This document shows, one piece after another, positions 14,302 to 27,575 of a stretch of 64,000 nucleotides of DNA (its first letter is position 1; every line of letters starts with the position of its first letter). The notes beneath the pieces are model-generated. The model was not told where the DNA came from and ran no database searches. It was given only the letters and a program-made list of their open reading frames with translations. Made by a program: the position numbers and the translations under genes. The stretch comes from a virus: IMG/VR virus record IMGVR_UViG_3300048694_001252, positions 1 to 64,000 of that record; one strand, written 5' to 3'.

Positions 14302-16467
14302 CTACTTTGACAAAGCTAGTGCTTTTATTCTCGCCAGATCTTCATAAAAACTATCGGTTACTGCTCCGCGGTGGTCCATGGAATCAGTTGAGTCTTCGTT
14401 TGGACCCGAAAACGTGGCCAGATTATCGCCTTCGGCCATATCTTCATCGTCATCCCAACCTTTGGCTTTGCTAGGAAAATAACGATGTACCGCTCTATCA
14501 TGACTTGGTACCAGCTTCAAGCGACTGGGAGAAATATACCAACCACGTCCATCTTTGTCTTCGATTCGAACACGACGATCATATGGATCACCAATCATTC
14601 TGAATACTTCACCGCCGTCACCATCCATTTCGTCACGTACAAAACAACCATCGTAAAGTTCAGTATCGTCGTATTCGCCTTCCGCCACACCTTGCTTCGT
14701 ACGTTTCTTAGCTTGCTGAGACCGATTATAATCATCCAGCGAAACAATTTTAAAGTTAAAAGCGTCGAGCGAATGTCTACCACCACTCATGCGAGTTAGG
14801 TACGATTTTGCGGCTGCTATTGAAGGGAACGCGCCGCCGTGCATTGGATAGTTCTGGGAACGTAATCCAGTTTTAGGGTTTACCAAAACATATCCACTGG
14901 TATCTAAATATCTTCTACTGTTTTCCTCCATATCTTTTTCTTTGGGTTTAGGTACAGGATTACCAGCTAAATCTTTGTCACCGATGTAAACTCCCCGTTC
15001 ATCATGGCTTAGCGGATTCTTTTCAAACGGTTTGCCTTTACGTGCTGCTTGGGCTGCTTCCACATCCTGCATGGCATCTTGCCAATAGCCTTCCGCCATG
15101 GGCTGCTGTGGTTGCGCAGCCGGCTGTGCCACCGGTGCAGCAGCCGGTTCAGGCGAGGGTTCTGCGGCAGGCGCGGGTTCAGGCGCGGGTTCTTGGGCTT
15201 GGGCATCAAGATCGACATCAACTCCGTTTTCTTCCAACCAGGCCTCGATCACGGGCGCGGCATCAGCATCGGCACCGTTGGAACGGCTGAGATTCTGTAG
15301 CCGGTCACGCAGATCATCCAGCATCTGATGATCCTCAGGATCATCGCGATCATAACCTATGATATCTTCCAGCTGAGGTATCACGTTCATGCCATCTTCA
15401 CCCACTGCTAGAGGTTTTTTGGCCAGCAGTTCCTGGATTTGATCCACTGCTTCATGATCATGGGCTAGGTCACTGAGACCTTCTGCCACTGTGTTGACCC
15501 AGTTTTCAAATATATCAGCTTCTTTCATGGCAGTTCCTTGAATACGTGCCAGCAAAGGCAATGCTGCCTCTACTCGCGTATCGATATGCTGCTCCACAAA
15601 CATGTCTCTGAGATTTTCTACCAGAGTATCAGCCGCAGTGATCTCAGCTGGCTGCCAGGATTCGAAATATCGACCATAACCACGACTGTGACCTAACTGC
15701 TGGAGATTGGAACGTAGCTGTTGATAGTACTCGCGGGCCTGTTCTACCAACTGTTGCCGCTGCCCTTCCAGTACCTGACCCTGGTGTGCACGATGGAATC
15801 GAGCCAGCACCTTCATTTCCTGGATTATTTCGGCTATGTGCTGACCGCGTATGTCATAGGGACGACCACCCTGGCGCACATGTTCCAGCATGGCGCGACC
15901 GCCTGCGAGATTGGTAAAAGGCAAAAGGAAGCGCTCACCATCCTGGGTTTCCACAAACAGTTTTTCCACATAGCGATAGCGAGCATCAGTTTCGCCTAGA
16001 GTGCGATTGTGTCGTATCATGAGTCGGGCCTGGGTGGGCTGTCCCATGTAGCTGACCTGGCGCGTACCATAATAACTTTCAAATAGGCTTTCCGAAATAG
16101 CCGACATGCTGGCCATGTAGTGCTTGAGATTACTGATATTTTGTGGGCTGAATGTGTTGAAGCCGTTGTGCGTGGCAAATTGTCCCAGTTGATGCAGGAA
16201 ATCATACCATTCGTCTTTGTCCCGGGGGGATTCCATGCTGCGTCCCATGCTGTCCCCAAAAAACAACAGTAATTCTTTGTCATCACTCAGGATCAACACA
16301 GCATTGCCATAATCGCGGCCACCGCTGCTGCGATAATCAAACCGTATGATATGCGCTTTTGATGGTGTGACATCTTGCCCGGTCCGGGGGTCTTTGGTAA
16401 CGGGATCAAATCCCCGAGTGACCAAAAGGTCATAAAGTCTTTGGGCTACTGTTTGTGTTTGTGCCAT
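14302..16467 (-). CDS. Probable virion head protein; N-terminal core plus C-terminal modules delimited by AEG/MEE motifs
   Basis: 721 aa; TAAATA 7 nt upstream; TVAEG, PMAEG, DMEE, QGVAEG, DMAEG sites; AT-rich C-terminal part. Confidence 0.7.
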   Translation of the reverse strand: MAQTQTVAQRLYDLLVTRGFDPVTKDPRTGQDVTPSKAHIIRFDYRSSGGRDYGNAVLILSDDKELLLFFGDSMGRSMESPRDKDEWYDFLHQLGQFATHNGFNTFSPQNISNLKHYMASMSAISESLFESYYGTRQVSYMGQPTQARLMIRHNRTLGETDARYRYVEKLFVETQDGERFLLPFTNLAGGRAMLEHVRQGGRPYDIRGQHIAEIIQEMKVLARFHRAHQGQVLEGQRQQLVEQAREYYQQLRSNLQQLGHSRGYGRYFESWQPAEITAADTLVENLRDMFVEQHIDTRVEAALPLLARIQGTAMKEADIFENWVNTVAEGLSDLAHDHEAVDQIQELLAKKPLAVGEDGMNVIPQLEDIIGYDRDDPEDHQMLDDLRDRLQNLSRSNGADADAAPVIEAWLEENGVDVDLDAQAQEPAPEPAPAAEPSPEPAAAPVAQPAAQPQQPMAEGYWQDAMQDVEAAQAARKGKPFEKNPLSHDERGVYIGDKDLAGNPVPKPKEKDMEENSRRYLDTSGYVLVNPKTGLRSQNYPMHGGAFPSIAAAKSYLTRMSGGRHSLDAFNFKIVSLDDYNRSQQAKKRTKQGVAEGEYDDTELYDGCFVRDEMDGDGGEVFRMIGDPYDRRVRIEDKDGRGWYISPSRLKLVPSHDRAVHRYFPSKAKGWDDDEDMAEGDNLATFSGPNEDSTDSMDHRGAVTDSFYEDLARIKALALSK
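14678..14694 (-). repeat. 17-bp QGVAEG repeat, copy 1 (CAAGGTGTGGCGGAAGG)
   Basis: Exact match to the copy at 24566-24582. Confidence 0.9.
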
Positions 16468-16477
16468 AGTAAGCTAT

Positions 16478-18049
16478 TTAGCGTAAAACTGCAAAGAAGG
16501 GCATGGGTTCAATTATGGAATCAGTATGATCCTTGATCTGTTGATCCAACTCAGCATGGTAGGTCTGTAACAGCATCAACATTCGTACGATCAGGATGGT
16601 AGACATGACCAAATCATCGGTTTCACCCGGCTTGGCTGCATAGCTCACACCGTGCGCCACAAAGGTCTTGAGCTCGCTTATGAGTGGTTTGCTGTGTATG
16701 ATCATGCGACGACTTTCCAGCAGCACCTTGAACTTGTTACAGGCCGTGATCTTGCTCTTGGGCGTGGTGTTGAATCCTTTGCGCCATCGACGTTGTCCTA
16801 TCACGGAATTGTCCGATAAGAAATAGCCCTGGATGTTTTCCTCACCGTATTCCGATATCGAGATCAGGGCCGCTTCGCCTATGGTGTTGTTTTCCACGGA
16901 GTAATAGATGCTCTGCGGATCCTTGACCACGCTGTTGATTTCACGCACGATGTCGGCCAAGATACGTACTTGTTCGGGGATGGTAGTACGATTATGTTGC
17001 CACTCGGCCACTTGTTCGGTGGTGCCGGCTTCAAATACCTGGATGGCCGCGGGATCTCCACCGGTGCCCAGGCTGGGATCCAAGGACACCACATAGATGC
17101 TGTTGGGGCGTATGTCACGATACCAACGAACCTGCCCGGTTTTGCGCAGGGGTTCGCGACCTTCTAGATCGATCAAGGTAGTGGGTGCTATCAAGGTCTC
17201 ATCGTTGATGATGAATTCGCACTGCATTTCGCGACGGAATCGATCGTCGCCCAGCTGGGCACGTTGTTCATCGGCCCAGGCCTGATCACGATCGGGATGC
17301 TCATGCCAATAACTCCGGAAAGCCCGGAAACCATTGATACCCAGTTCCGTGGTATTGCCAAACTCATCTAGGCATTTGTTGGCACCTTTCCACAGGAACG
17401 CAAACTGATCTTCATCCGAATTGGGTGTGCTGGTAATGATACATTTACCGCCTGTGGATAGCGTGGGCGCTATGGAAGTCCAGAATTCTCGACCTATGGT
17501 GGGACGCACGAATGCGAACTCGTCAGCATACAGTAAAGAAATACTCATACCCCGACCTGTGGTCTCTGTGGTTGTTTGGCTTACTATGCGGCTACCGTTT
17601 TCAAATTCCAGGCTGCCCTTGTTGTAGCTGGTACAACCGGCTCGTATATGGTTTGGGCACAGCTCATAGGCATAGCGTATGCGCTGCATGATTTCCTGAG
17701 CACCGGTATACTTGTGAGCCGCTATCAAGATCGTGCTGTCCGGAACGAACATGGCGTACCAGAGCAGATATCCCGCGGCCGAAGTTGACTTGCCGGTCTG
17801 GCGCGGCATGAGGCTGATGCTGTTGCGATAGTTGTGATATGTGTCGATCAGACGCTTCTGATAATCAAACGGATGATATACCATCTTGCCCCGGGTAGGA
17901 TGCTGGATGTAGAAGAAGTTGTCCAGGAAATACTGTGGACCGGTCACCGGATCGGCGCAGAGAGCAAATTCTTGAATCTCTTGTTCGGTATATCTTTCGC
18001 GGCGATGCGGACTTTTTACCAGTACTGTTTCAAGTTGGTTGCGTTGCAT
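16478..18049 (-). CDS. gp17: Terminase large subunit (T4 gp17-like)
   Basis: PRQTGKS Walker A, LLYADEFAFV Walker B, ITSTPN, RNase H-like DPSLGTGGD and DDLVM. Confidence 0.95.
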   Translation of the reverse strand: MQRNQLETVLVKSPHRRERYTEQEIQEFALCADPVTGPQYFLDNFFYIQHPTRGKMVYHPFDYQKRLIDTYHNYRNSISLMPRQTGKSTSAAGYLLWYAMFVPDSTILIAAHKYTGAQEIMQRIRYAYELCPNHIRAGCTSYNKGSLEFENGSRIVSQTTTETTGRGMSISLLYADEFAFVRPTIGREFWTSIAPTLSTGGKCIITSTPNSDEDQFAFLWKGANKCLDEFGNTTELGINGFRAFRSYWHEHPDRDQAWADEQRAQLGDDRFRREMQCEFIINDETLIAPTTLIDLEGREPLRKTGQVRWYRDIRPNSIYVVSLDPSLGTGGDPAAIQVFEAGTTEQVAEWQHNRTTIPEQVRILADIVREINSVVKDPQSIYYSVENNTIGEAALISISEYGEENIQGYFLSDNSVIGQRRWRKGFNTTPKSKITACNKFKVLLESRRMIIHSKPLISELKTFVAHGVSYAAKPGETDDLVMSTILIVRMLMLLQTYHAELDQQIKDHTDSIIEPMPFFAVLR

Positions 18050-18066: not shown

Positions 18067-18771
18067 CTATCTAAACGCGAAACGAAATCCCGTGGCCTGT
18101 TCCACCGCTTCCACCGTGACCTGATAGCGTGGCAGATCGGCCACGGGCAATGCGGTGTTGGGCAGCAGATAGGCCACGGTCTGGCCATTGGCTCGGTTGT
18201 GCAGGATCTTGTACAAGCGTGTGGGTATGCCCAGACCGTTGCCAGTTACCGGATGTCCAGCATCAAAGATGCCGCCCGAAATTACATACCAATCCCCGCC
18301 CTTCTCGGCCCAATCCCGCTCCCAGGTCTCCAGCTGTTTCCAGATTCCGCGGTTGTTGTTGGCCACCTGTGCCACCATGTTTGACAGGAAGAAACTCTCA
18401 CTCATGATCTGGTCGTTCTGGGTATTGTTGCCCGCGGGAGCCATGTGACCTCGGTCGTGTGTTTTGCCCACTGTGGCATAGTCGGCCAAGGTGGCCTGGC
18501 AGTTGGCTGTAACGGCCGGATCGGCACGGAAGTTGTCTTTACGCTTGGCCGGACCGGTCATTGCGGCCACTGTTAGATGTTCAAACACTGCCACAGGTGC
18601 TTTCACACTGCAACGATGGATCACGGCATAATTGGTTTTACACAGTTCTTGATCTCCCGGCTGTGCTTGATAAGCCGGTGTGCCATGGCTGGTAAATTGC
18701 GGGCATTGGCTGTTGATCTGTGCCCATGAGCTAAGAGGCACACACAATAAAAAGAATAGTATTTTTTTCAT
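18067..18771 (-). CDS. DNA/RNA non-specific endonuclease (NucA/Serratia type) with signal peptide
   Basis: DRGHMAP, ESFFLSNM..Q....NRGIWKQLE, IPTRLYK; N-terminus MKKILFFLLCVPLSSWA. Confidence 0.88.
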   Translation of the reverse strand: MKKILFFLLCVPLSSWAQINSQCPQFTSHGTPAYQAQPGDQELCKTNYAVIHRCSVKAPVAVFEHLTVAAMTGPAKRKDNFRADPAVTANCQATLADYATVGKTHDRGHMAPAGNNTQNDQIMSESFFLSNMVAQVANNNRGIWKQLETWERDWAEKGGDWYVISGGIFDAGHPVTGNGLGIPTRLYKILHNRANGQTVAYLLPNTALPVADLPRYQVTVEAVEQATGFRFAFR

Positions 18772-18789
18772 AGTTCGATCTTTCATAGT

Positions 18790-20697
18790 TTAGTCCACCA
18801 GCCAGGCCAATCCAACTGTGGTTGAGTTGAATGATTGTGAGCAACTTATAAAAATACTAATAGTTTCTCCGGGTGCCAACACAAAGTTATAGGGCAGCAA
18901 GTTGAATTGAGCACCACCGTTGACCCCCACAGTCTGTACCAGTACAATCTGATCCGATGCCAAGGTTTCTGTAACTGCACTGGTGCTTATCTGCGCAAAG
19001 TTGAACGCAGTGGCACTGGGCTGCGGACTGAACACCAACAAGTCGCTGGTGCCTACTGCATTTTTGATCATATAAATCACAGCAGGATCGGTGCTTTTGA
19101 GACCCACTGACATGTCTTGTAATACCAAACTGCTCTTGTTGACCATACCGTTTCGCACAAAAGGATTTTGCACACTGAGAAAATGCCATACTGTGTCTTT
19201 GGCTTTGGTCGCGCCATCAAGAGCATAAAAACTTTGACTTGAATTTGTTTGTCTAATCTGACCCTGTATGCCGGTCATGATACTGGCGCCTGTGACGACT
19301 ACATTTTGACTGGGTGTGGCACCCGAGGTGGTTCCTGACCTATAAACAATACGCAAACTGGGTTTTCTAATGTGTGGTGCTGGATTGTTACCATCAGCAT
19401 CGGTCCATCGCTGGGTGTGCATCAAGGTCATCTGACCTGTGGCAGGATCTTCCATGAACAATCGCACGATACCTGCGCCCAACCAACGGAAATCCACTGC
19501 CCACACATTGAGTTTGGTTGGATCAAAGCTCACATTCTGATTGTCCCATTGATCCACATAGGTCCATGTGTCAGTGGGTGTGGCACCTGCTTGTGTTTGT
19601 GAAAATGTACCAGCTGCTGCGGTGCCAGTGCCTGTGCTGGAAAAACTGTATGTTCCAGATTTGGCACCTGGTGAGTAGTATGTGAATGTCACTGTGCTGC
19701 CACAGGCATCGATATCCCAAAGATTGTTGGGGACTGTCTGTGCTTTTAGTAATTTGGCAATTTGTGCGGCACAATAAGCTGTGCTGGAGCTGGTGGCCAG
19801 GCTTACTGTGTAAGCAGAACCATCGAGAGTGATGGTAGCAGTTTGAGCACCAGTGTTTTGTTGTGTTATGGTCAGTGTTTGTATTTCGGTCTTGCCACCT
19901 AATCTGTGCAAGAAGCCAATCTTCTGCGCACGGTTAGAATTTGCAGTGCTGGTGCTGCCGCTGTAACCTATGGCATAGCCATCTTCGCGGTCGATGGGTC
20001 CAGTGGTTTGCACTATGTTTGCTACTCCTAGACCATTTTTGTTTGTGGCATTGGCTGTAAAGGCCGCGGTCCAGCGGAACATGGATCCTTGGCCAGGTTG
20101 ATACGTCATGTATCTAGAAGTTGCCAACCTAGCATAACCACCAGGTGACGTTCCTGAATTTACCTGCCATGTGCTCACACTGCTGAGCACAACATTACCA
20201 TTGCTGAGTTGAGTGGTGCTCCAAATATCTGGATCCAATCCATAAACTCCATCAGCTTGTATCACTGGAGTTATGGTGATGGCCAAAGGTTCTTGGAATG
20301 CAGTTTTTTCTGCTGGATCAACTGTGGTGGTAATGTTACCACTGCTGACCGTGACATTTCCACTGACTGACCATGGAGTGGTTCCTTGTGTGACGTTTAC
20401 GTTGCCCAAGATTCCCACATTGCCACTGACGTTGGCATTTCCAAGAATGCCCACATTGCCTTGCACAGTGACATTGCTGGTGATGCCTGCGATGTTGCCG
20501 GTGACACTCACTGGCATGTAAGTATGGCTGAGATCTATGTTGCCCAGTGAACCAATGGCCACATTGCCCACTGACACATTGCCTGCGAGTACACTGTTGG
20601 TGCGCAGGAACACATTGCCCGTGGCCGAATCCAGCTCTAGAGCCTGCGTGATGTTGCGCAAATACCAGGGTGCCACTTGAGATGGGTTTGGTTCCAT
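18790..20697 (-). CDS. Probable virion structural protein (Thr/Ser/Gly-rich, beta-rich)
   Basis: 635 aa; GNV repeats, YQPGQG, WLGAG; TAATG coupling. Confidence 0.6.
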   Translation of the reverse strand: MEPNPSQVAPWYLRNITQALELDSATGNVFLRTNSVLAGNVSVGNVAIGSLGNIDLSHTYMPVSVTGNIAGITSNVTVQGNVGILGNANVSGNVGILGNVNVTQGTTPWSVSGNVTVSSGNITTTVDPAEKTAFQEPLAITITPVIQADGVYGLDPDIWSTTQLSNGNVVLSSVSTWQVNSGTSPGGYARLATSRYMTYQPGQGSMFRWTAAFTANATNKNGLGVANIVQTTGPIDREDGYAIGYSGSTSTANSNRAQKIGFLHRLGGKTEIQTLTITQQNTGAQTATITLDGSAYTVSLATSSSTAYCAAQIAKLLKAQTVPNNLWDIDACGSTVTFTYYSPGAKSGTYSFSSTGTGTAAAGTFSQTQAGATPTDTWTYVDQWDNQNVSFDPTKLNVWAVDFRWLGAGIVRLFMEDPATGQMTLMHTQRWTDADGNNPAPHIRKPSLRIVYRSGTTSGATPSQNVVVTGASIMTGIQGQIRQTNSSQSFYALDGATKAKDTVWHFLSVQNPFVRNGMVNKSSLVLQDMSVGLKSTDPAVIYMIKNAVGTSDLLVFSPQPSATAFNFAQISTSAVTETLASDQIVLVQTVGVNGGAQFNLLPYNFVLAPGETISIFISCSQSFNSTTVGLAWLVD

Positions 20698-21077
20698 TAT
20701 CTAGGATATCCAGAAAATGCCCGTAGCGGGCTTTGACTATTTACCAAATTGGGTTCTTGGCTGGTACGGGTAGAGATCAACTGTTTGCCGCCCGGTGTGT
20801 CGGTCATGGCCAAGGCACGATCTATGATCTTTTCTACGTTGTCGTTGAAACCCACGACCATGGCGTTTTGTCCCACAGTGATCGTGGGAAATTCTTCCGA
20901 ATCCTGCACATATCCCCCGGCTTCGGCTCGAGCTCGCGCCATGGCCACGCCCAGGCGCATGGTATGATAGGCATCGTTGTTGCGTATGCCAGGCAATCGA
21001 TAGGCATGCTGCATGGGTTCGGCCACTTCGGCTGGCAAACGTTCCAGCTGTTCCATGACAAATTCTCGTGCTCTCAT
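20697..21077 (-). CDS. MRAREF paralogue 4, putative internal head protein
   Basis: MRAREFVME...SPLRAFSGYPR. Confidence 0.8.
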   Translation of the reverse strand: MRAREFVMEQLERLPAEVAEPMQHAYRLPGIRNNDAYHTMRLGVAMARARAEAGGYVQDSEEFPTITVGQNAMVVGFNDNVEKIIDRALAMTDTPGGKQLISTRTSQEPNLVNSQSPLRAFSGYPR

Positions 21078-21472
21078 CGTGAGTATCCCGCAAACGGTCG
21101 CAAGGGACTGGTCTTGTCCACATCATCAGCTTCTTCACTGGTTGCTGTGCTGATCAGACGCTTGTCACTGGGACTCTGTCCTATGGCCTTGAGAGCTTCG
21201 TCGATCCAGTCTTCGATGTCGGGGTCAAAACTCACAACCACTTGGTTTTCACCCCAGGCGCTGCGCGGTGCGAAATCATGCACAGTACCTTCGCCGGCCT
21301 GTTCACGACCACGGCGTCCCTTGGCCTGGGCTATGGCCACCCCAAATCTGTATTGCTCATAGGGGTCTTGATTTTGCAGTTTGGTCAACACATACGTGGC
21401 CGGCAGGGCCCGAGCCACATCATCCTGGAGGCTACCCACGCGAGATTCGGCTACAAATTCACGCGCTCTCAT
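21074..21472 (-). CDS. MRAREF paralogue 3, putative internal head protein
   Basis: MRAREFVAE...SPLRPFAGYSR; ATGA overlaps. Confidence 0.8.
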   Translation of the reverse strand: MRAREFVAESRVGSLQDDVARALPATYVLTKLQNQDPYEQYRFGVAIAQAKGRRGREQAGEGTVHDFAPRSAWGENQVVVSFDPDIEDWIDEALKAIGQSPSDKRLISTATSEEADDVDKTSPLRPFAGYSR

Positions 21473-21867
21473 CGTGCGTATCCTGCAAAAGGTCGTACAG
21501 GACTGTTTCGGTGCACATAATCAGGTTCACGGCTGCGATTGTCCGTGAGTTTGTTCACGCGACCTGCCTGCACCATCTGGGCGGCAGCATTGATGATTTC
21601 CATGTCAACATCACTATAACAGGCCAACAGGGGATCGCCCGCAAAGGCGCCCGCAGGTGGCGTAGGGTAATCGGGTGCACCGGCCATGGCGATACTGAAT
21701 CGCCACTGGGTATAGGGACTGCCGCCCTGCTTGTTGCTGCTGATATCGGGCATGCTGATCGCGCCCTTGATAGTTGTACGGTGCGAATGCGGCAGTTTGC
21801 GAGAGCTGGCCGGCACATCTGCGGCTCTACCGTAGCGTGTTTCTGTTACAAATTCTCGTGCTCTCAT
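21469..21867 (-). CDS. MRAREF paralogue 2, putative internal head protein
   Basis: MRAREFVTE...SPVRPFAGYAR; ATGA overlaps. Confidence 0.8.
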   Translation of the reverse strand: MRAREFVTETRYGRAADVPASSRKLPHSHRTTIKGAISMPDISSNKQGGSPYTQWRFSIAMAGAPDYPTPPAGAFAGDPLLACYSDVDMEIINAAAQMVQAGRVNKLTDNRSREPDYVHRNSPVRPFAGYAR

Positions 21868-22745
21868 TTGCCATCATCTCCTAGATGCATGTGACTGAAG
21901 GGTTTGGTACCGCGATTCTTCTGCCATAGCAGTCTATTACTTAGTATTTCGACCCAGACATTGGTATCAGGACGATTCAAGCGCCAGAAATCAAACTCGA
22001 TATGGCTGCTGACCGGACGACAGTAGAGAGTACGCTCCCGGGGCACACATAGCTGCTGGCTGGTGGTGCGAAATTTCTTGGGTTCGGTACTGTATCGCAT
22101 GATGTTCAGCTGCGGGTTTGGGATGTTGATCTGGCACATGCCATCCACGAGATCCTGGGGAGTACGGGCGTCACGTACCACCTGTTGAGCCTGTAGCAGT
22201 CGAGCTCGACTGCTTATGCGATCCTGGGTCTCTTGCGTGTTTTTGGCGTTGTTTTGGAATCCGGCCCAGGGCAGCCAGATGCCGTGATTGGTACGAGCCA
22301 CCAGTTGCGTGTGCGGAATCAATTTTACTTTAGATCTATAGGGTCTACGTCCATCTTGATCGCCGGCTTCTATGAGATACAGTGTTTCTTGATCAAACAC
22401 CATGGTGCAGCCACCCAGCTTTCCCTGGATCAGGACGTCAACTGCGGGTTTGACTTCGCGCTCGAGCAAGGCCCGAGCAATCAAGCGACCATCCGGGCTG
22501 GTATCGGCTTCACCTTGTTCAATGGCTCGTTCGTCTGTGTACACATCCAGGCTGGTATTGAGTATGCTGATGCCCTGACTGTTGATACCTTCTTTGTAGC
22601 CGGTCACACGATCATGCATCATCATGCGTGACACGCCCCGCTCGGTACTTTCGATAAAGTCCAGGCGCGGTACGTAGTTACGATCTCGATTCTTGGCCCC
22701 GGCCCACCCAATCCCGGGAAAGTATCGGGCCACGATTATGCACAT
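21864..22745 (-). CDS. N-terminal nucleophile (Ntn) cysteine hydrolase, NRDE/C45-like
   Basis: Cys2 after Met, KNRDR, EGINSQGI, RTNHG, S..R. Confidence 0.75.
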   Translation of the reverse strand: MCIIVARYFPGIGWAGAKNRDRNYVPRLDFIESTERGVSRMMMHDRVTGYKEGINSQGISILNTSLDVYTDERAIEQGEADTSPDGRLIARALLEREVKPAVDVLIQGKLGGCTMVFDQETLYLIEAGDQDGRRPYRSKVKLIPHTQLVARTNHGIWLPWAGFQNNAKNTQETQDRISSRARLLQAQQVVRDARTPQDLVDGMCQINIPNPQLNIMRYSTEPKKFRTTSQQLCVPRERTLYCRPVSSHIEFDFWRLNRPDTNVWVEILSNRLLWQKNRGTKPFSHMHLGDDGK

Positions 22746-22747
22746 GG

Positions 22748-23128
22748 CTAGCGCCCATATCCGGCAAAAGGTTTTACCGGACTCTGTACCTGCACATCCG
22801 ACGTTTCACGACTGCCTTTGCTCACGTAATCATGCGGCTTCATTTTCAAATGCTTCATGATGGCCATGAGCTTTTCACGGTCATAGTCGGTATAGGCGCT
22901 GAACAGTGGTAGATTGCCGCAGAAACTCAGCTGATCAAGTTCTTTGAGCTTTTTGGGATCCATGCCGGCCAAGGAACTCACACGATAAAAATCATAATAG
23001 CGACCCCAGTATACGTCGCCCGATCCCGAAGGTGCTACCAGACCGGGATGCGCGGTTTCAAATTCCGGTGCGGCCGCTGTTCTGCTACCGCCCCGAGGCG
23101 ATTCAGTAATGAACTCGCGGGCGCGCAC
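22748..23128 (-). CDS. MRAREF paralogue 1 (GTG start), putative internal head protein
   Basis: VRAREFITE...SPVKPFAGYGR; GTG 2 nt after the upstream stop. Confidence 0.75.
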   Translation of the reverse strand: MRAREFITESPRGGSRTAAAPEFETAHPGLVAPSGSGDVYWGRYYDFYRVSSLAGMDPKKLKELDQLSFCGNLPLFSAYTDYDREKLMAIMKHLKMKPHDYVSKGSRETSDVQVQSPVKPFAGYGR

Positions 23129-23604: not shown

Positions 23605-25557
23605 TCACCAGGCTCGGCAGCTCCAATATCTGGCTTTCCAACGCGGACCAGGATTGGCACAGTTGTGGCGGGCCCGGAAGCTCTTGCGGCGTTTTGGGTT
23701 GGATTTTTTGATGCGCATCTTCTTGTCACCAAAGTTGACCTTGACCACATTGCCTTTGGGACCTTTCACATACACTTTGCTTTTCTTTACATCTCCGGCC
23801 ATGGGCTTGCCCAGGGGTACTTCACGTCCTTGGTATTTGGCTTCCATGGGTGCAGGATCATCTACGTCGTATGGATCTTCCGCATTGTGCTGTTTAGCGT
23901 CACGTGAGTCCCACTGTGCTTGTGCATCCTGTTCAGCAGCCTGCTGATATTCTGGGCTGTAGTCTGGATCAGTGATTAGATACTGAATCATGTGATCGTC
24001 AACTTTAGCAGCAATATTGTTACCAGTTACGTCACCACCAGTTAGTTTAACATGTAAATGTCCGGTTTGTGGATCAGGTGTAGCGATATAATTTACATAT
24101 CCTTCTACTTCTTCACCATCGTCACCAATCCAGGTAACATCTGTGCTGCCTTCAAAACTTTCAGGATCGAATCCTTCGTTTTGCAGATGTTCCTCCACGG
24201 TTTCGGACAAGGGTGTGGTCTGAGGTTCTAGACCAGCCAATTCTTGTATGCGGCGCAGGGTTTGATCCGCTTCCGCCACACCTTGCTCTTGGCTCTCACC
24301 AAAACGAAACTTAGGGGCGGCACGTAACAACATTGCCACACCTTTATCAAATTTTGCGCGGTCGTAAAATTTCCCGTTGTTGATACTGGCTAAAATCGTT
24401 TTGACGCCAGGTATTCCCAGTAGTTGATTGGACATAAAATATGTTCTGCCACCTGCGGCCGCATCAACTAAATCCAACAAATCTTCGGGGTAAAGACGAT
24501 CTTCATTTTTTGGTGATCCATATTTGGCCCAGATTTTTTCTGCGATACGTTTTGCTTGCGAAGAGCCTTCCGCCACACCTTGTTCTCTATATTTCTTGGC
24601 GACATCTATTTCAATATCACCGTTGCCATTGCGCTCACTCCAGGCTGCAAATCGTTTTCCGTTGATAGTAACCAATTCACCACTTGCATTGGAAATATAT
24701 TCTGCATTGTCATCTAGCAACTCACGGTTAACACGATTTACATCACGCAACCACTTTTCATGGTTTCCGTAGGTCTCAAATCTTTTCTGCAATAAATCTC
24801 TAGTATCAACTGATGGCAAATTTACTCCAGAACGTGGCCCAAGCATATAATCGCTGGAACTTAAACTACCTGGCAAGCCTGCCTCCGCTACACCTTGCTC
24901 ATTGACATTATCTCTGACATATAATGTATCTTTGGGGAATTTTGCGATCCACTTAGCACCGGCTGGAGTTATCTTGTAAATCCCATCCAACGATGAGATT
25001 ATACCCTTTTTTACTAATTTTGGTAGGAATCTTTCCAGGAAATCTCTTTTGATAAACACATTGCCATGAAGCGCACTGGCTAATTTACGTCCAGACAATC
25101 CAGAATCTTCGACCTGCTGTAACTGTAGTAACGTTCTTGCGACATCTTTTCGATTGAACGTATGTTGAAACTTGCCTTCCGCCACACCTTTGACATGCCA
25201 AGTTTTATGGCATTGATGGCATTCTTTCTCACCATCACTGTAGGTTTTGATGTCGGTACTGTAACAGCCTGGGCAATGTGTACTGGTGGTGGGTTTGGCA
25301 CCGGTACCTGACTTTGTCTTGGGTTCTGGTTCGTTCTTTTGATCTTGGGCCATGCCTTGCTCTTCCAGCAGTCCATAGCTTTCCAAGATCCGCATCATGT
25401 CTTCGTCTGCGGCCAAGACCACACCATCTTCCACAACGTCAACTATGTGTGACTCTACCAGGCATTCTTCACGGATGTTTATGGCAAAGTCATCACCCAC
25501 GGCCGGTGCTGCGACCCAGGATTCTGCTTCGTTGATATGGTCTCGCAGTGTTTTCAT
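23605..25557 (-). CDS. Modular polyprotein with QGVAE-delimited cassettes and a basic C-terminal RRKSFRARHNC...ARYWSCRAW domain
   Basis: 650 aa; MKTLRDHINE N-terminus; EQGMAQ, KGVAEG, EQGVAEA, EQGVAEG, EQGVAEA separate unrelated modules. Confidence 0.8.
   Translation of the reverse strand: MKTLRDHINEAESWVAAPAVGDDFAINIREECLVESHIVDVVEDGVVLAADEDMMRILESYGLLEEQGMAQDQKNEPEPKTKSGTGAKPTTSTHCPGCYSTDIKTYSDGEKECHQCHKTWHVKGVAEGKFQHTFNRKDVARTLLQLQQVEDSGLSGRKLASALHGNVFIKRDFLERFLPKLVKKGIISSLDGIYKITPAGAKWIAKFPKDTLYVRDNVNEQGVAEAGLPGSLSSSDYMLGPRSGVNLPSVDTRDLLQKRFETYGNHEKWLRDVNRVNRELLDDNAEYISNASGELVTINGKRFAAWSERNGNGDIEIDVAKKYREQGVAEGSSQAKRIAEKIWAKYGSPKNEDRLYPEDLLDLVDAAAGGRTYFMSNQLLGIPGVKTILASINNGKFYDRAKFDKGVAMLLRAAPKFRFGESQEQGVAEADQTLRRIQELAGLEPQTTPLSETVEEHLQNEGFDPESFEGSTDVTWIGDDGEEVEGYVNYIATPDPQTGHLHVKLTGGDVTGNNIAAKVDDHMIQYLITDPDYSPEYQQAAEQDAQAQWDSRDAKQHNAEDPYDVDDPAPMEAKYQGREVPLGKPMAGDVKKSKVYVKGPKGNVVKVNFGDKKMRIKKSNPKRRKSFRARHNCANPGPRWKARYWSCRAW
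24269..25191 (-). repeat. Array of four 17-bp direct repeats spaced 297/315/294 bp, separated by unique AT-rich in-frame inserts
   Basis: Copies at 24269-24285, 24566-24582, 24881-24897, 25175-25191; core AAGGTGTGGCGGAAG exact in three, with two synonymous changes in the 24881 copy. Confidence 0.9.
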
Positions 25558-25559
25558 GG

Positions 25560-27575
25560 TTAGGCCTTATATGCTTTCCACAAGCGAGTCATGTCCTGGA
25601 GACTGGACTCAAACGCTTGATTTTCTTTATTGCTGCTGAGTTTATCCTGTAGGGCCTTTCCCGCCATCTGACCTGCCAGGCTTGCAGCACCTCGTGTCAG
25701 TGCACTGGCACCGGATCCCACGGCAGTGCGAGCTAGAGCAGCACCAATAGCCGGTAACACTTCGTCTAGTTTTTGGTCTTTTTCTGCTGCGGCTTGTGTC
25801 ATGGGCTCTTCCCGATCACCATCTTGGTCGATGTCCAAGAAATCGGGTTTAGCAGCTTCCTGCACCCCGGCCAGTTCCCGGATACGCTCCAGGCTTTCGT
25901 CCATGGGCCGATCACATTCGCATTTGCTTTCGTACATGCCACATTCCATGCATTTGTTTTCGTCGAGATCTTCGGTTTCCTGCACACGCACCGCAGTGGT
26001 AGGCATCACGGTCTGACCATCGCCAGCAACATCAGTCTTGGGTTTGTTGACACCACCTGAGTATTGCAGGGCATCGGAGTTTGTTTCGGTGTTGGTGGGC
26101 CATTCCGGTTGATTTTCATCTACCTGCGTGGCACAGGCACAGGGCTCTTGACCACAGCTGGGGCAGGCATGTGAATCCGGGGTGTGCGGCATGACCCCCA
26201 CACCAGCACGTTTTAGGAGCTCAATCAAATCACCTGCATCTTCTTCGGTGGCTGTGACTGTGACTGAATCATTGCCTTCGCTACTGCGGCTGATGTTTAC
26301 GCTCATGCTTTCAGAGATCATGGCTTCCAGTTCACGGTTCATGCTGTCATAGATGCCTTTACCATACTGCATTTTACCACCCGGAGATTTCTTGGGGACA
26401 TCCGCGGATTCTGACTTGGCTCGCGGTGCCGGGGCTGTCGCGACCGATCCCGCTACTGTGGAAGTTTCTTCCACTTCTTTTTTCTTGGTGGGCAGACCTT
26501 TTTCTTTGGTAGCAGCAAACTTATGCAGTTCCTTCTTGCTCATCTTGGCCATCTCTCGGCTGGCACCGCGTAGTTCGGATTTGGGGATTTCACCCTTCTG
26601 TGCCGCATGTGCGATGCCGGCAGCGCGACGCTGGGCCACGCTCACGGCTTTTTCACCCAGTGGTTGTTCCTGGCCCTCTTCACCAGTGGCCATTTCCCCA
26701 TCACGTTCGTGTTGGGTCTGCATGTAATCATCCACAGTGGACATCATGCCTTCGATCTTGGTCAACTTCATTTGTACCCATTCAGGCAAATCCTCGCGAT
26801 CGGCCAGGATCTTTTCCAGGGCCTGGGCATGACGCACGATAGTATGGATCTGATCCTTGGCTTGATCGCCTTCGTTGCCGTATTCGCCCGCATCATCAGG
26901 CTGGGCTCCGGGTGGTAGCTCCTCAGCTATGGCGCCTTTGCGATGCAGCTTGGATGTGCCCTTGACCTTGGCTCCGATTTTTTTGCCCCGGCCGGCACCC
27001 ACGGCCTTGCGGCCCATATGACGTGGCTCACCGTCGTCTTGGTCATCGGCATCGGGTTCATCTGTCTGGCTCGCGCCACCATAGCGTTTGCCCTGCACTG
27101 ATTTTACCGGCAGATCGGCCAGTTTGAGTTCTTCGACTTTATGGGTGGCAGGCTTTTTCTTGGTTGTCTTTTTGACTACCTGCAGCACACCCTTGGCATC
27201 ACGCCGGAGAGTTTCTTGGCCACCAGATGCTTTTTCCACTGCACGGGTCAGATCGGGTGCTAGATCTCGACCACTGACCTTGGTCTTGGCCTTGGGCGGT
27301 TGGTTGAACGAAGAAGATTTACGCACACCAAACTTGTCATAGTCATCGCTGCTGAAGGGTTTTGGTTTGCCTTCCTCCACACCTTGCTTGGCCTGGCGAG
27401 CCGCTTGCTTCATGGGTTCGTGGCGATTGCCATCTTGGTCCAGATCCAAAAAATCAGGCTTGGCCGCTTCGCCTACTTTGTGGCGCAGTTTGTCCAACAC
27501 AGCACCTTCTGTGAGCTGTTCCTTGCCTTGGGCCAGTTTGGCCAACTTTTTGTTCATGTCGTAAAAAAATGTCAT
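25560..27575 (-). CDS. Modular probable prohead core/internal protein (DUF3008-like segment, two DxDxDG repeats, LPEWVQ helix module)
   Basis: 671 aa; AAKPDFLD(L/I)DQDG twice; AVSVAQRRAAGIA...LRGASREMAKMSKKEL..FAATKEKGLP; many (L/I/V)xE sites. Confidence 0.75.
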   Translation of the reverse strand: MTFFYDMNKKLAKLAQGKEQLTEGAVLDKLRHKVGEAAKPDFLDLDQDGNRHEPMKQAARQAKQGVEEGKPKPFSSDDYDKFGVRKSSSFNQPPKAKTKVSGRDLAPDLTRAVEKASGGQETLRRDAKGVLQVVKKTTKKKPATHKVEELKLADLPVKSVQGKRYGGASQTDEPDADDQDDGEPRHMGRKAVGAGRGKKIGAKVKGTSKLHRKGAIAEELPPGAQPDDAGEYGNEGDQAKDQIHTIVRHAQALEKILADREDLPEWVQMKLTKIEGMMSTVDDYMQTQHERDGEMATGEEGQEQPLGEKAVSVAQRRAAGIAHAAQKGEIPKSELRGASREMAKMSKKELHKFAATKEKGLPTKKKEVEETSTVAGSVATAPAPRAKSESADVPKKSPGGKMQYGKGIYDSMNRELEAMISESMSVNISRSSEGNDSVTVTATEEDAGDLIELLKRAGVGVMPHTPDSHACPSCGQEPCACATQVDENQPEWPTNTETNSDALQYSGGVNKPKTDVAGDGQTVMPTTAVRVQETEDLDENKCMECGMYESKCECDRPMDESLERIRELAGVQEAAKPDFLDIDQDGDREEPMTQAAAEKDQKLDEVLPAIGAALARTAVGSGASALTRGAASLAGQMAGKALQDKLSSNKENQAFESSLQDMTRLWKAYKA
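27370..27386 (-). repeat. 17-bp repeat copy (CAAGGTGTGGAGGAAGG, QGVEEG)
   Basis: One mismatch to the consensus. Confidence 0.8.

Follow-up and report, generated by a model that had tools for sequence, protein, structure and literature searches.

Phage T4 carries internal proteins (IPI, IPII, IPIII and Alt), which are targeted to the head and released there through cleavage by the prohead protease gp21 after L/I-X-E, and T4 relatives differ in which proteins they package (PMC9026906). In the giant phiKZ-like phages, the cleavage sites read S/A-X-E or A-X-E. Here, we describe a gene in which small modules are strung in frame behind a large conserved carrier. It is gene 14302..16467 on the minus strand of a 64,000-nucleotide stretch of viral DNA (the window), which is the first 64 kb of the 115-kb record IMGVR_UViG_3300048694_001252, estimated to be 33% complete. 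Every module border is of the type hydrophobic-X-Glu↓Gly, where the arrow marks the position after the Glu, and the youngest borders are an exact 18-nt repeat that encodes QGVAEG. Comparison of homologous sequences demonstrates that, in related phages, modules are gained, lost, replaced and reordered precisely at these borders and invariably in frame, and that modules also pass between unrelated host genes. We consider it probable that the product is a virion-associated carrier of swappable modules, in which the junction serves both as a recombination border and as a cut site for the prohead protease.

The resemblance to the T4 system lies in a gp21-family protease within a T4-like head module, in the hydrophobic-X-Glu junctions and in the size of the modules, which at 56–83 aa come close to the smaller of the internal proteins of T4 (about 8 and 10 kDa). 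The T4 proteins, however, are products of separate genes and each has a 10-residue N-terminal targeting sequence, whereas the modules here follow one another behind a single carrier. Unlike the T4 case, the junction is also fixed at the DNA level and common to many genes and phages, and its cleavage and the packaging and ejection of the modules are predictions.

A second comparison is with the polyvalent proteins, which are predicted to be delivered with the DNA (Iyer et al. 2017, PMC5512222). These have many unrelated domains in one polypeptide, are encoded among virion and packaging genes and show fast-changing combinations (PMC5512222). They are recognized by 2–15 unrelated domains in such a neighbourhood, and the carrier has a core, three modules and a tail beside the large terminase gene (TerL). 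They are also marked by catalogued conflict domains (peptidase, nuclease, ART, LPD families and others); Pfam found no catalogued effector or peptidase domain in the carrier, and one match in BFVD is named for a large polyvalent protein-associated domain (LPD). The text of PMC5512222 does not contain 'linker' or 'shuffl', and no universal, DNA-conserved junction that might double as a protease site is described in it.

Short conserved sequences that flank variable segments, and within or beside which T4-type phages exchange DNA, are known from the glycine-rich motifs of the gp38 adhesin (PMC3157838) and from PeSL cassettes (PMC2839356, PMC4122927). The former number five, a constant set within a single folded domain of a single gene, and the latter are intergenic promoter-terminator elements, whereas one in-frame 18-mer here joins hundreds of unrelated whole modules in many genes. 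Motif-mediated shuffling is what the sequences display, in a chimeric junction (homologues L014 and L005), in five module pairs that lose homology at the repeat and in a swap at two junctions (fragment P0154). Finally, integron cassettes share with this system the array of unrelated units, the recurring site, the gain, loss and reordering of units, and their sharing across genomes. In contrast to the structured, imperfectly palindromic attC, the 18-mer is non-palindromic coding sequence, and where integron cassettes are complete promoterless ORFs, the modules have no start or stop codons and form one translated chain; no integron integrase was found on the 115-kb record, which is about 33% complete. 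None of these systems describes one in-frame, DNA-fixed junction that joins unrelated whole modules across many genes, and a full-text literature search for the junction peptide returned no relevant paper.

The carrier gene and its parts

The carrier gene starts 10 nt past the stop codon of the gene for a T4-type large terminase subunit. The parts of its 721-residue product were defined by cutting after each junction Glu and are listed here in order of translation.

14302..16467, minus strand: carrier gene, 721 aa, from the open reading frame (ORF) list, directly downstream of the large terminase gene
15481..16467, minus strand: conserved N-domain, residues 1–329, conserved in alignments A1 and A2; matches phrog_13484, 'virion structural protein' (E 1e-11)
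15478..15489, minus strand: core V-A-E-G site, residues 327–330, vertically inherited; E329 and G330 invariant in the alignments
15208..15480, minus strand: conserved middle region, residues 330–420 (alignments A1 and A2)
15091..15207, minus strand: Pro/Ala-rich linker, residues 421–459, ending in P-M-A-E; GC 0.70; homologues show equivalent low-complexity linkers
15088..15099, minus strand: junction 1, M-A-E↓G; identical to the right half of the repeat over the final 11 nt
14923..15090, minus strand: module 1, residues 460–515, 168 nt; widespread cassette; GC at third codon positions (GC3) 0.34
14923..14934, minus strand: junction 2, D-M-E-E↓N; decayed junction copy that aligns with the QGVAE, DMAE or DVAE ends of other copies of module 1
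14680..14922, minus strand: module 2, residues 516–596, 243 nt; nearly orphan; GC3 0.38
14677..14694, minus strand: junction 3, the exact 18-nt repeat encoding QGVAEG, also exact at 24565–24582
14431..14679, minus strand: module 3, residues 597–679, 249 nt; small, probably all-beta; GC3 0.30
14428..14439, minus strand: junction 4, M-A-E↓G, before the tail; 10 of 11 nt match the right half of the repeat
14305..14430, minus strand: conserved 42-aa C-terminal tail, residues 680–721, ending in a predicted helix (low-confidence model)

The four junctions had been named in a first-pass annotation made from the sequence, and all four were confirmed, in frame with the carrier gene on the minus strand. 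The first, the PMAEG site, is where it had been placed, except that M-A-E-G spans 15088–15099 and so ends at 15099 rather than 15098. The division into segments of 168, 243 and 249 bp also stands, and the three modules are mutually unrelated, as an all-against-all BLAST placed no two of them in one cluster. Two statements had to be revised: the conserved part, put at about 310 aa, comprises residues 1–420, and the array, described as C-terminal, is internal, with the last 42 residues conserved across the family. As for the proposal that the last segment is SH3-like, support is weak; module 3 gave a low-confidence all-beta model, and structural neighbours at a TM of about 0.5, which are leads from the ESM Atlas, include SH3 and KOW.

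The modules are also richer in AT than the core, as had been claimed. Here, GC is 0.44–0.46 and GC3 0.30–0.38 in the three modules, compared with 0.50 and 0.50 for residues 1–329 and a GC3 of 0.59 for the terminase. A GC3 as low as that of the modules occurs in only 3–11% of 80-codon windows in the long ORFs of the record, and the coincidence of shift and boundary that had been proposed was borne out, as the drop in GC3 starts at the first junction. The same trend extends to the family, where GC3 is lower in the variable region than in the core in 38 of 42 members (p = 6e-7), the gene in the window having the largest gap of the 42.

Structural modeling provided limited information on the parts. 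Core residues 1–420 were modeled at a pLDDT of 72.6, with the V-A-E-G site located at the end of a low-confidence stretch (residues 289–332). Foldseek gave no match of the core model to a PDB fold at E 0.001 or better, and VIA-align reached Z ≤7.1 with helical hairpins only. In BFVD, the structural matches of the core were uncharacterized phage proteins, one of which is the protein named for the LPD domain (E 5e-17). The single-sequence model of residues 460–721 was poor (pLDDT 46) and no fold claim was drawn from it. No Pfam family reached the cut-off for the whole carrier, the single modules or the tail.

Exchange of modules at the junctions

More than 1600 homologues of the carrier protein were found, many of them on contigs of 200–360 kb. 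The best 120 of these all have the core and, owing to the variable stretch between core and tail, are 471 to 1172 aa long. The 42-aa tail is found at the C-terminus of nearly all of the best 120, and in 33 of the loci that were compared. In the comparison of C-termini that the first-pass annotation had suggested, its proposal held: core and tail are shared and the modules between them differ completely in number, kind and order. Beyond the core, in which it is 91% identical, even the closest homologue among those listed has only module 3 and the tail in common with the carrier.

Architectures were derived by cutting the proteins at the junctions and clustering the pieces by all-against-all BLAST, and were found to differ by whole modules. 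An example is the pair L005 and L014, where c8, c17, c18, c9 and tail in one correspond to c8, c9 and tail in the other. L014 lacks two modules that are present in L005, and its lone junction consists of the left part of one L005 junction and the right part of another, which is what a crossover inside the repeat would be expected to produce. The fragment P0154 provides a near-isogenic case: it is 99% identical to the window in module 2 and 95% in the tail, but where the window has module 3 it has a different module of 45 aa, swapped in at the two flanking junctions (3 and 4). The replacement is very recent, and its borders coincide exactly with the third and fourth sites. The database representative P0001, listed as 100% identical, differs from the window in two tail residues (A-A, not D-S), and P0154 has the same A-A variant.

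The modules differ in how widely they are distributed. Module 1 is present in 33 other proteins that lack the core signature motif, at 62–89% identity and in most of them over residues 1–56 of 56. Most of these proteins have a QGVAE-like junction ahead of it, and about half have one behind it. Its other copies read QGVAE, DMAE or DVAE where the window reads D-M-E-E, which confirms the second border as a decayed junction. P0154 is the sole relative found for module 2, which had no match among about 200 loci. A small fold common to module 2 and look-alike modules of homologues was considered and dropped, as the pairwise alignments were not significant (z ≤2.1). Module 3 is common to several family members, where it occupies varying positions in the array, and is also found in proteins without the core (P0137 and P0147). 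In the fragment P0158, module 3 directly precedes a C-terminal domain that by eye resembles the end of a second array gene, 23605..25557, and a zinc-ribbon module of that gene resembles, again by eye, one in P0009, a homologue of the carrier. Modules therefore appear to pass between the two carrier families.

P0156 likewise ends with module 3 and the family tail and lacks the core. This protein and P0161, both short and cassette-bearing, have N-termini of the type M-K-T-F-K-S-F-M-V-E↓G, which we take to be strikingly like the targeting sequence of T4 IPIII.

The exact 18-mer is not restricted to this phage, as it is present in at least 120 IMG/VR viral contigs. Among the matches listed, 147 of 153 exact copies read QGVAEG in ORFs of at least 150 aa, which correspond to 122 distinct host ORFs, and shared modules link 100 of these into a single network. 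The same matches include 138 contexts with less than 70% flank identity, and two or three bases to either side of the 18-mer, information content is already down to about 0.1 bit. In 30 module pairs, the match extends over the whole module while one or both of the adjacent modules are unrelated. In the five pairs that were inspected, nucleotide identity is 94–100% inside the module and 23–37% just beyond the repeat, on both sides. One of the hosts, L199 (minus strand), is an ORF of 1775 aa whose N-terminal part looks nucleotidyltransferase-like by eye and which has an H-E-x-x-H metallopeptidase-like motif.

Conservation of the junction at the DNA level was separated from that of the peptide by codon counts, for which 43 unique junction instances found via the peptide were used. 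The junction Ala is encoded by GCG in 23 of 43, against a background of 5% in the same ORFs, the Gly preceding it by GGT in 32 of 43 (35% in the same ORFs) and the Val by GTG in 22 of 30 (42%). The core site serves as an internal control: GCG is found in 13 of 27 cassette junctions of the same genes and in 0 of 18 Ala codons at the vertically inherited core site. As the core site has the same kind of peptide without GCG, the peptide does not require these codons, and the nucleotide identity belongs to the exchangeable borders. On this comparison, the DNA identity of the junction is a reflection of recombination history and not of a need of the peptide.

The peptide is under constraint of its own. 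An unbiased DNA search, allowing up to 3 mismatches anywhere, returned 43 instances and all 43 read as variants of Q-G-V/M-x-E-G/A/E/D. Positions 1 and 2 of the Glu codon and position 2 of the Val/Met codon never vary, and mismatches number 15, 22 and 40 at the first, second and third codon positions. In the family, the core site reads [LIVM]-x-E-G in 47 of the 47 ORFs where it was found, without the codons of the repeat, and the site before the tail reads [LMV]-x-E-G. With the alignment of DMEE to QGVAE-type ends, this upholds the earlier proposal that older sites decay while keeping hydrophobic-X-E.

In the window there are 5 copies of the 18-mer with up to 3 mismatches, compared with 0.04 expected, and 6 copies of its 11-nt right half with up to 1 mismatch, compared with 1.07 expected. 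All of them are on the minus strand, in three genes. The peptide GVAE[G/A] is found on the 115-kb record only in the carrier gene and in 23605..25557, plus one match in an opposite-strand frame. The copies outside the carrier gene belong to the following features.

23605..25557, minus strand: second array gene, with four GVAE junctions and modules of GC3 0.33–0.38
27369..27386, minus strand: one-mismatch copy of the repeat, reading Q-G-V-E-E-G, inside gene 25560..27575

The junction is therefore confined to three virion-module genes on the record, yet is clade-wide. The first-pass annotation had called the repeat a genome-wide landing site rather than the product of local tandem duplication. 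The second half of this statement is upheld by module 1 in the 33 core-less proteins, module 3 in other hosts and the P0154 swap, and tandem duplication was rejected, the modules being mutually unrelated. In the first half, 'clade-wide' has to replace 'genome-wide', and 'landing site' implies an insertion mechanism that goes beyond the evidence.

Proposed cleavage, virion association and competing explanations

The record encodes a gp21-type prohead protease (Peptidase_S77; PF03420, 82.2 bits at C1:76943-77362, minus strand; gene at C1:76805-77449), and the gene is surrounded by those for the portal, an acidic core-like protein, the scaffold and the major capsid protein, which together constitute a T4-like head module. 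The carrier has hydrophobic-X-Glu sites at residues 327–329 (V-A-E), 457–459 (M-A-E), 513–515 (M-E-E), 594–596 (V-A-E) and 677–679 (M-A-E). By its sequence, the junction fits a cut site for a head-maturation protease, with V or M taking the place of the L or I of T4. Association with the virion is suggested by synteny. RaK2 has the identical order of TerL, carrier, gp32-like single-stranded DNA-binding protein and UvsX-like protein, and PA5oct departs from it by one additional structural gene behind TerL. In these two phages, the homologues at the position of the carrier (426 and 496 aa) are annotated as virion structural proteins, and the PA5oct entry is noted with electrospray ionization tandem mass spectrometry (ESI-MS/MS).

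Module exchange at the junction is well supported, and we infer its route. Exchange would occur by recombination between junction copies, either during co-infection or within one genome, and most likely with the short common sequence as substrate for the phage's own recombination machinery. Ordinary recombination of this kind is favoured because the chimeric junction is plain and there is neither a conserved flank nor a structured site. A transferred module would bring fresh copies of the junction with it, while resident borders would drift, first at silent positions and later at residues where change is tolerated. Inside the prohead, the gp21-type protease would then cut the precursor after the Glu of the junction peptide, which would set free the N-domain, the middle region, each of the modules and the tail. 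Once released, the modules may behave like the T4 internal proteins, being small, packaged in the head and probably passed on together with the DNA.

Several observations weigh against this proposal. Eighteen nucleotides are short for homologous recombination. P3 at the cassette junctions is Val or Met, where the T4 rule is Leu or Ile, and a T4-like N-terminal capsid-targeting sequence was not found, as the first 20 residues of the carrier contain no hydrophobic-X-Glu site. The PA5oct and RaK2 homologues are distant (23–28% identity) and have neither modules nor tail, so that presence of the carrier protein in the virion is an extrapolation. Finally, across the family, BLAST alignments end within 3 residues of the motif in 9% of cases compared with 3.8% at random, and start there in 5.5% compared with 4.2%; this crude test, with its weak enrichment, was superseded by the module-level comparisons.

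Of the other explanations, the one that survives best retains the exchange of modules and dispenses with cleavage. Here, the junction would be an uncleaved, flexible linker in a single multi-domain 'polyvalent' virion protein, and its likeness to a protease site would be coincidental or serve another purpose. Some polyvalent proteins are packaged unprocessed (PMC5512222), and the BFVD match of the core to the LPD-named protein points the same way. A mere linker, however, needs neither an invariant Glu nor an invariant hydrophobic residue two places before it, and would give no reason to expect that pattern at the vertical core site in every one of the 47 members in which the site was found. 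A gp21-type protease of that kind of specificity is, moreover, encoded on the record. We consider an uncleaved linker unlikely.

A dedicated, sequence-specific enzyme (a recombinase, nuclease or transposase-like protein) could instead recognize the 18-mer and move the modules, which would be compatible with cutting by the protease. Such an enzyme would account for a repeat that is exact and sharply bounded in the 138 unrelated contexts, and for silent positions that are conserved far beyond codon bias, more than 18-nt homology alone is expected to maintain. Tyrosine and serine recombinases (PF00589 and PF00239) were, however, not found on the 115-kb record, about 33% complete as it is. In addition, the 18-mer is not palindromic by inspection, its flanks have no conserved sequence for a structured site, and in the L014 junction two copies are simply joined, as ordinary crossing-over gives. 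Taken together, a dedicated enzyme seems improbable.

Selection of the nucleotide identity at the level of RNA or translation, for example as a rare-codon pause between domains, in place of recombination, is very improbable: GCG is indeed rare and the repeat does lie at domain borders, but such codons are absent from the vertically inherited core site in spite of its similar peptide, and a pause leaves unexplained why the nucleotide homology of shared modules ends exactly at the repeat, which is a signature of recombination. Inteins and self-cleaving, 2A-like peptides were rejected from the sequence, as the junction does not have their defining residues.

If the protein is indeed a carrier whose modules are exchanged and released at one junction, a broader interpretation can be put forward tentatively, and we hold it with less than even confidence. 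The system would be an 'integron for protein domains' in a clade of giant T4-like phages, with one junction acting as both DNA recombination handle and head-protease site, and with plug-in modules that are released in the capsid, delivered with the genome and rapidly reshuffled as injected effectors (e.g. in anti-defence). Phages could then evolve a multi-protein cargo quickly, as the 18-nt junction would keep exchanges in frame and modules releasable by the protease. This would explain the extreme architectural variety of the family, would make hundreds of small modules candidate injected effectors and would suggest how, after a natural design, foreign proteins could be loaded into phage heads. 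What the present locus adds is an internal control that tells constraint on the DNA from constraint on the peptide, evidence for the passage of modules between unrelated carrier genes, and a near-isogenic swap.

Neighbouring genes and minor observations

Upstream of the carrier on the same strand is the following gene.

16478..18049, minus strand: large terminase subunit, T4 type (PF03237, E 6e-15; PF17289, E 2e-6)

Between it and a 635-aa ORF there is an ORF of 239 aa (18067-18786, minus strand) with a signal-peptide-like N-terminus and a D-R-G-H motif, which we assume to be typical of non-specific DNA/RNA endonucleases.

In the head module, which lies outside the window, a very acidic protein of 310 aa (C1:77456-78388, minus strand) is encoded just upstream of the prohead protease and has P-M-A-E↓A between an acidic N-terminal part and a basic C-terminal part; its P-M-A-E is the same as that of junction 1 in the carrier gene. 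The major capsid protein (C1:74484-75680, minus strand) has L-L-E↓G, I-L-E↓N and L-K-E↓N in its first 42 residues, where a T4-like propeptide cut is expected. A GIY-YIG-like homing-endonuclease gene (C1:73593-74366, minus strand) lies between the major capsid gene and a fibre-like gene of 1842 aa.

At 20697-23128 (minus strand), four small paralogues start with M-R-A-R-E-F-[VI]-x-E and share a conserved C-terminal end. This start presumably resembles the T4 IPIII-type capsid-targeting sequence, which ends in hydrophobic-X-Glu. Among these paralogues is an ORF of 293 aa beginning with M-C (21864-22745, minus strand), which had no PHROG match.

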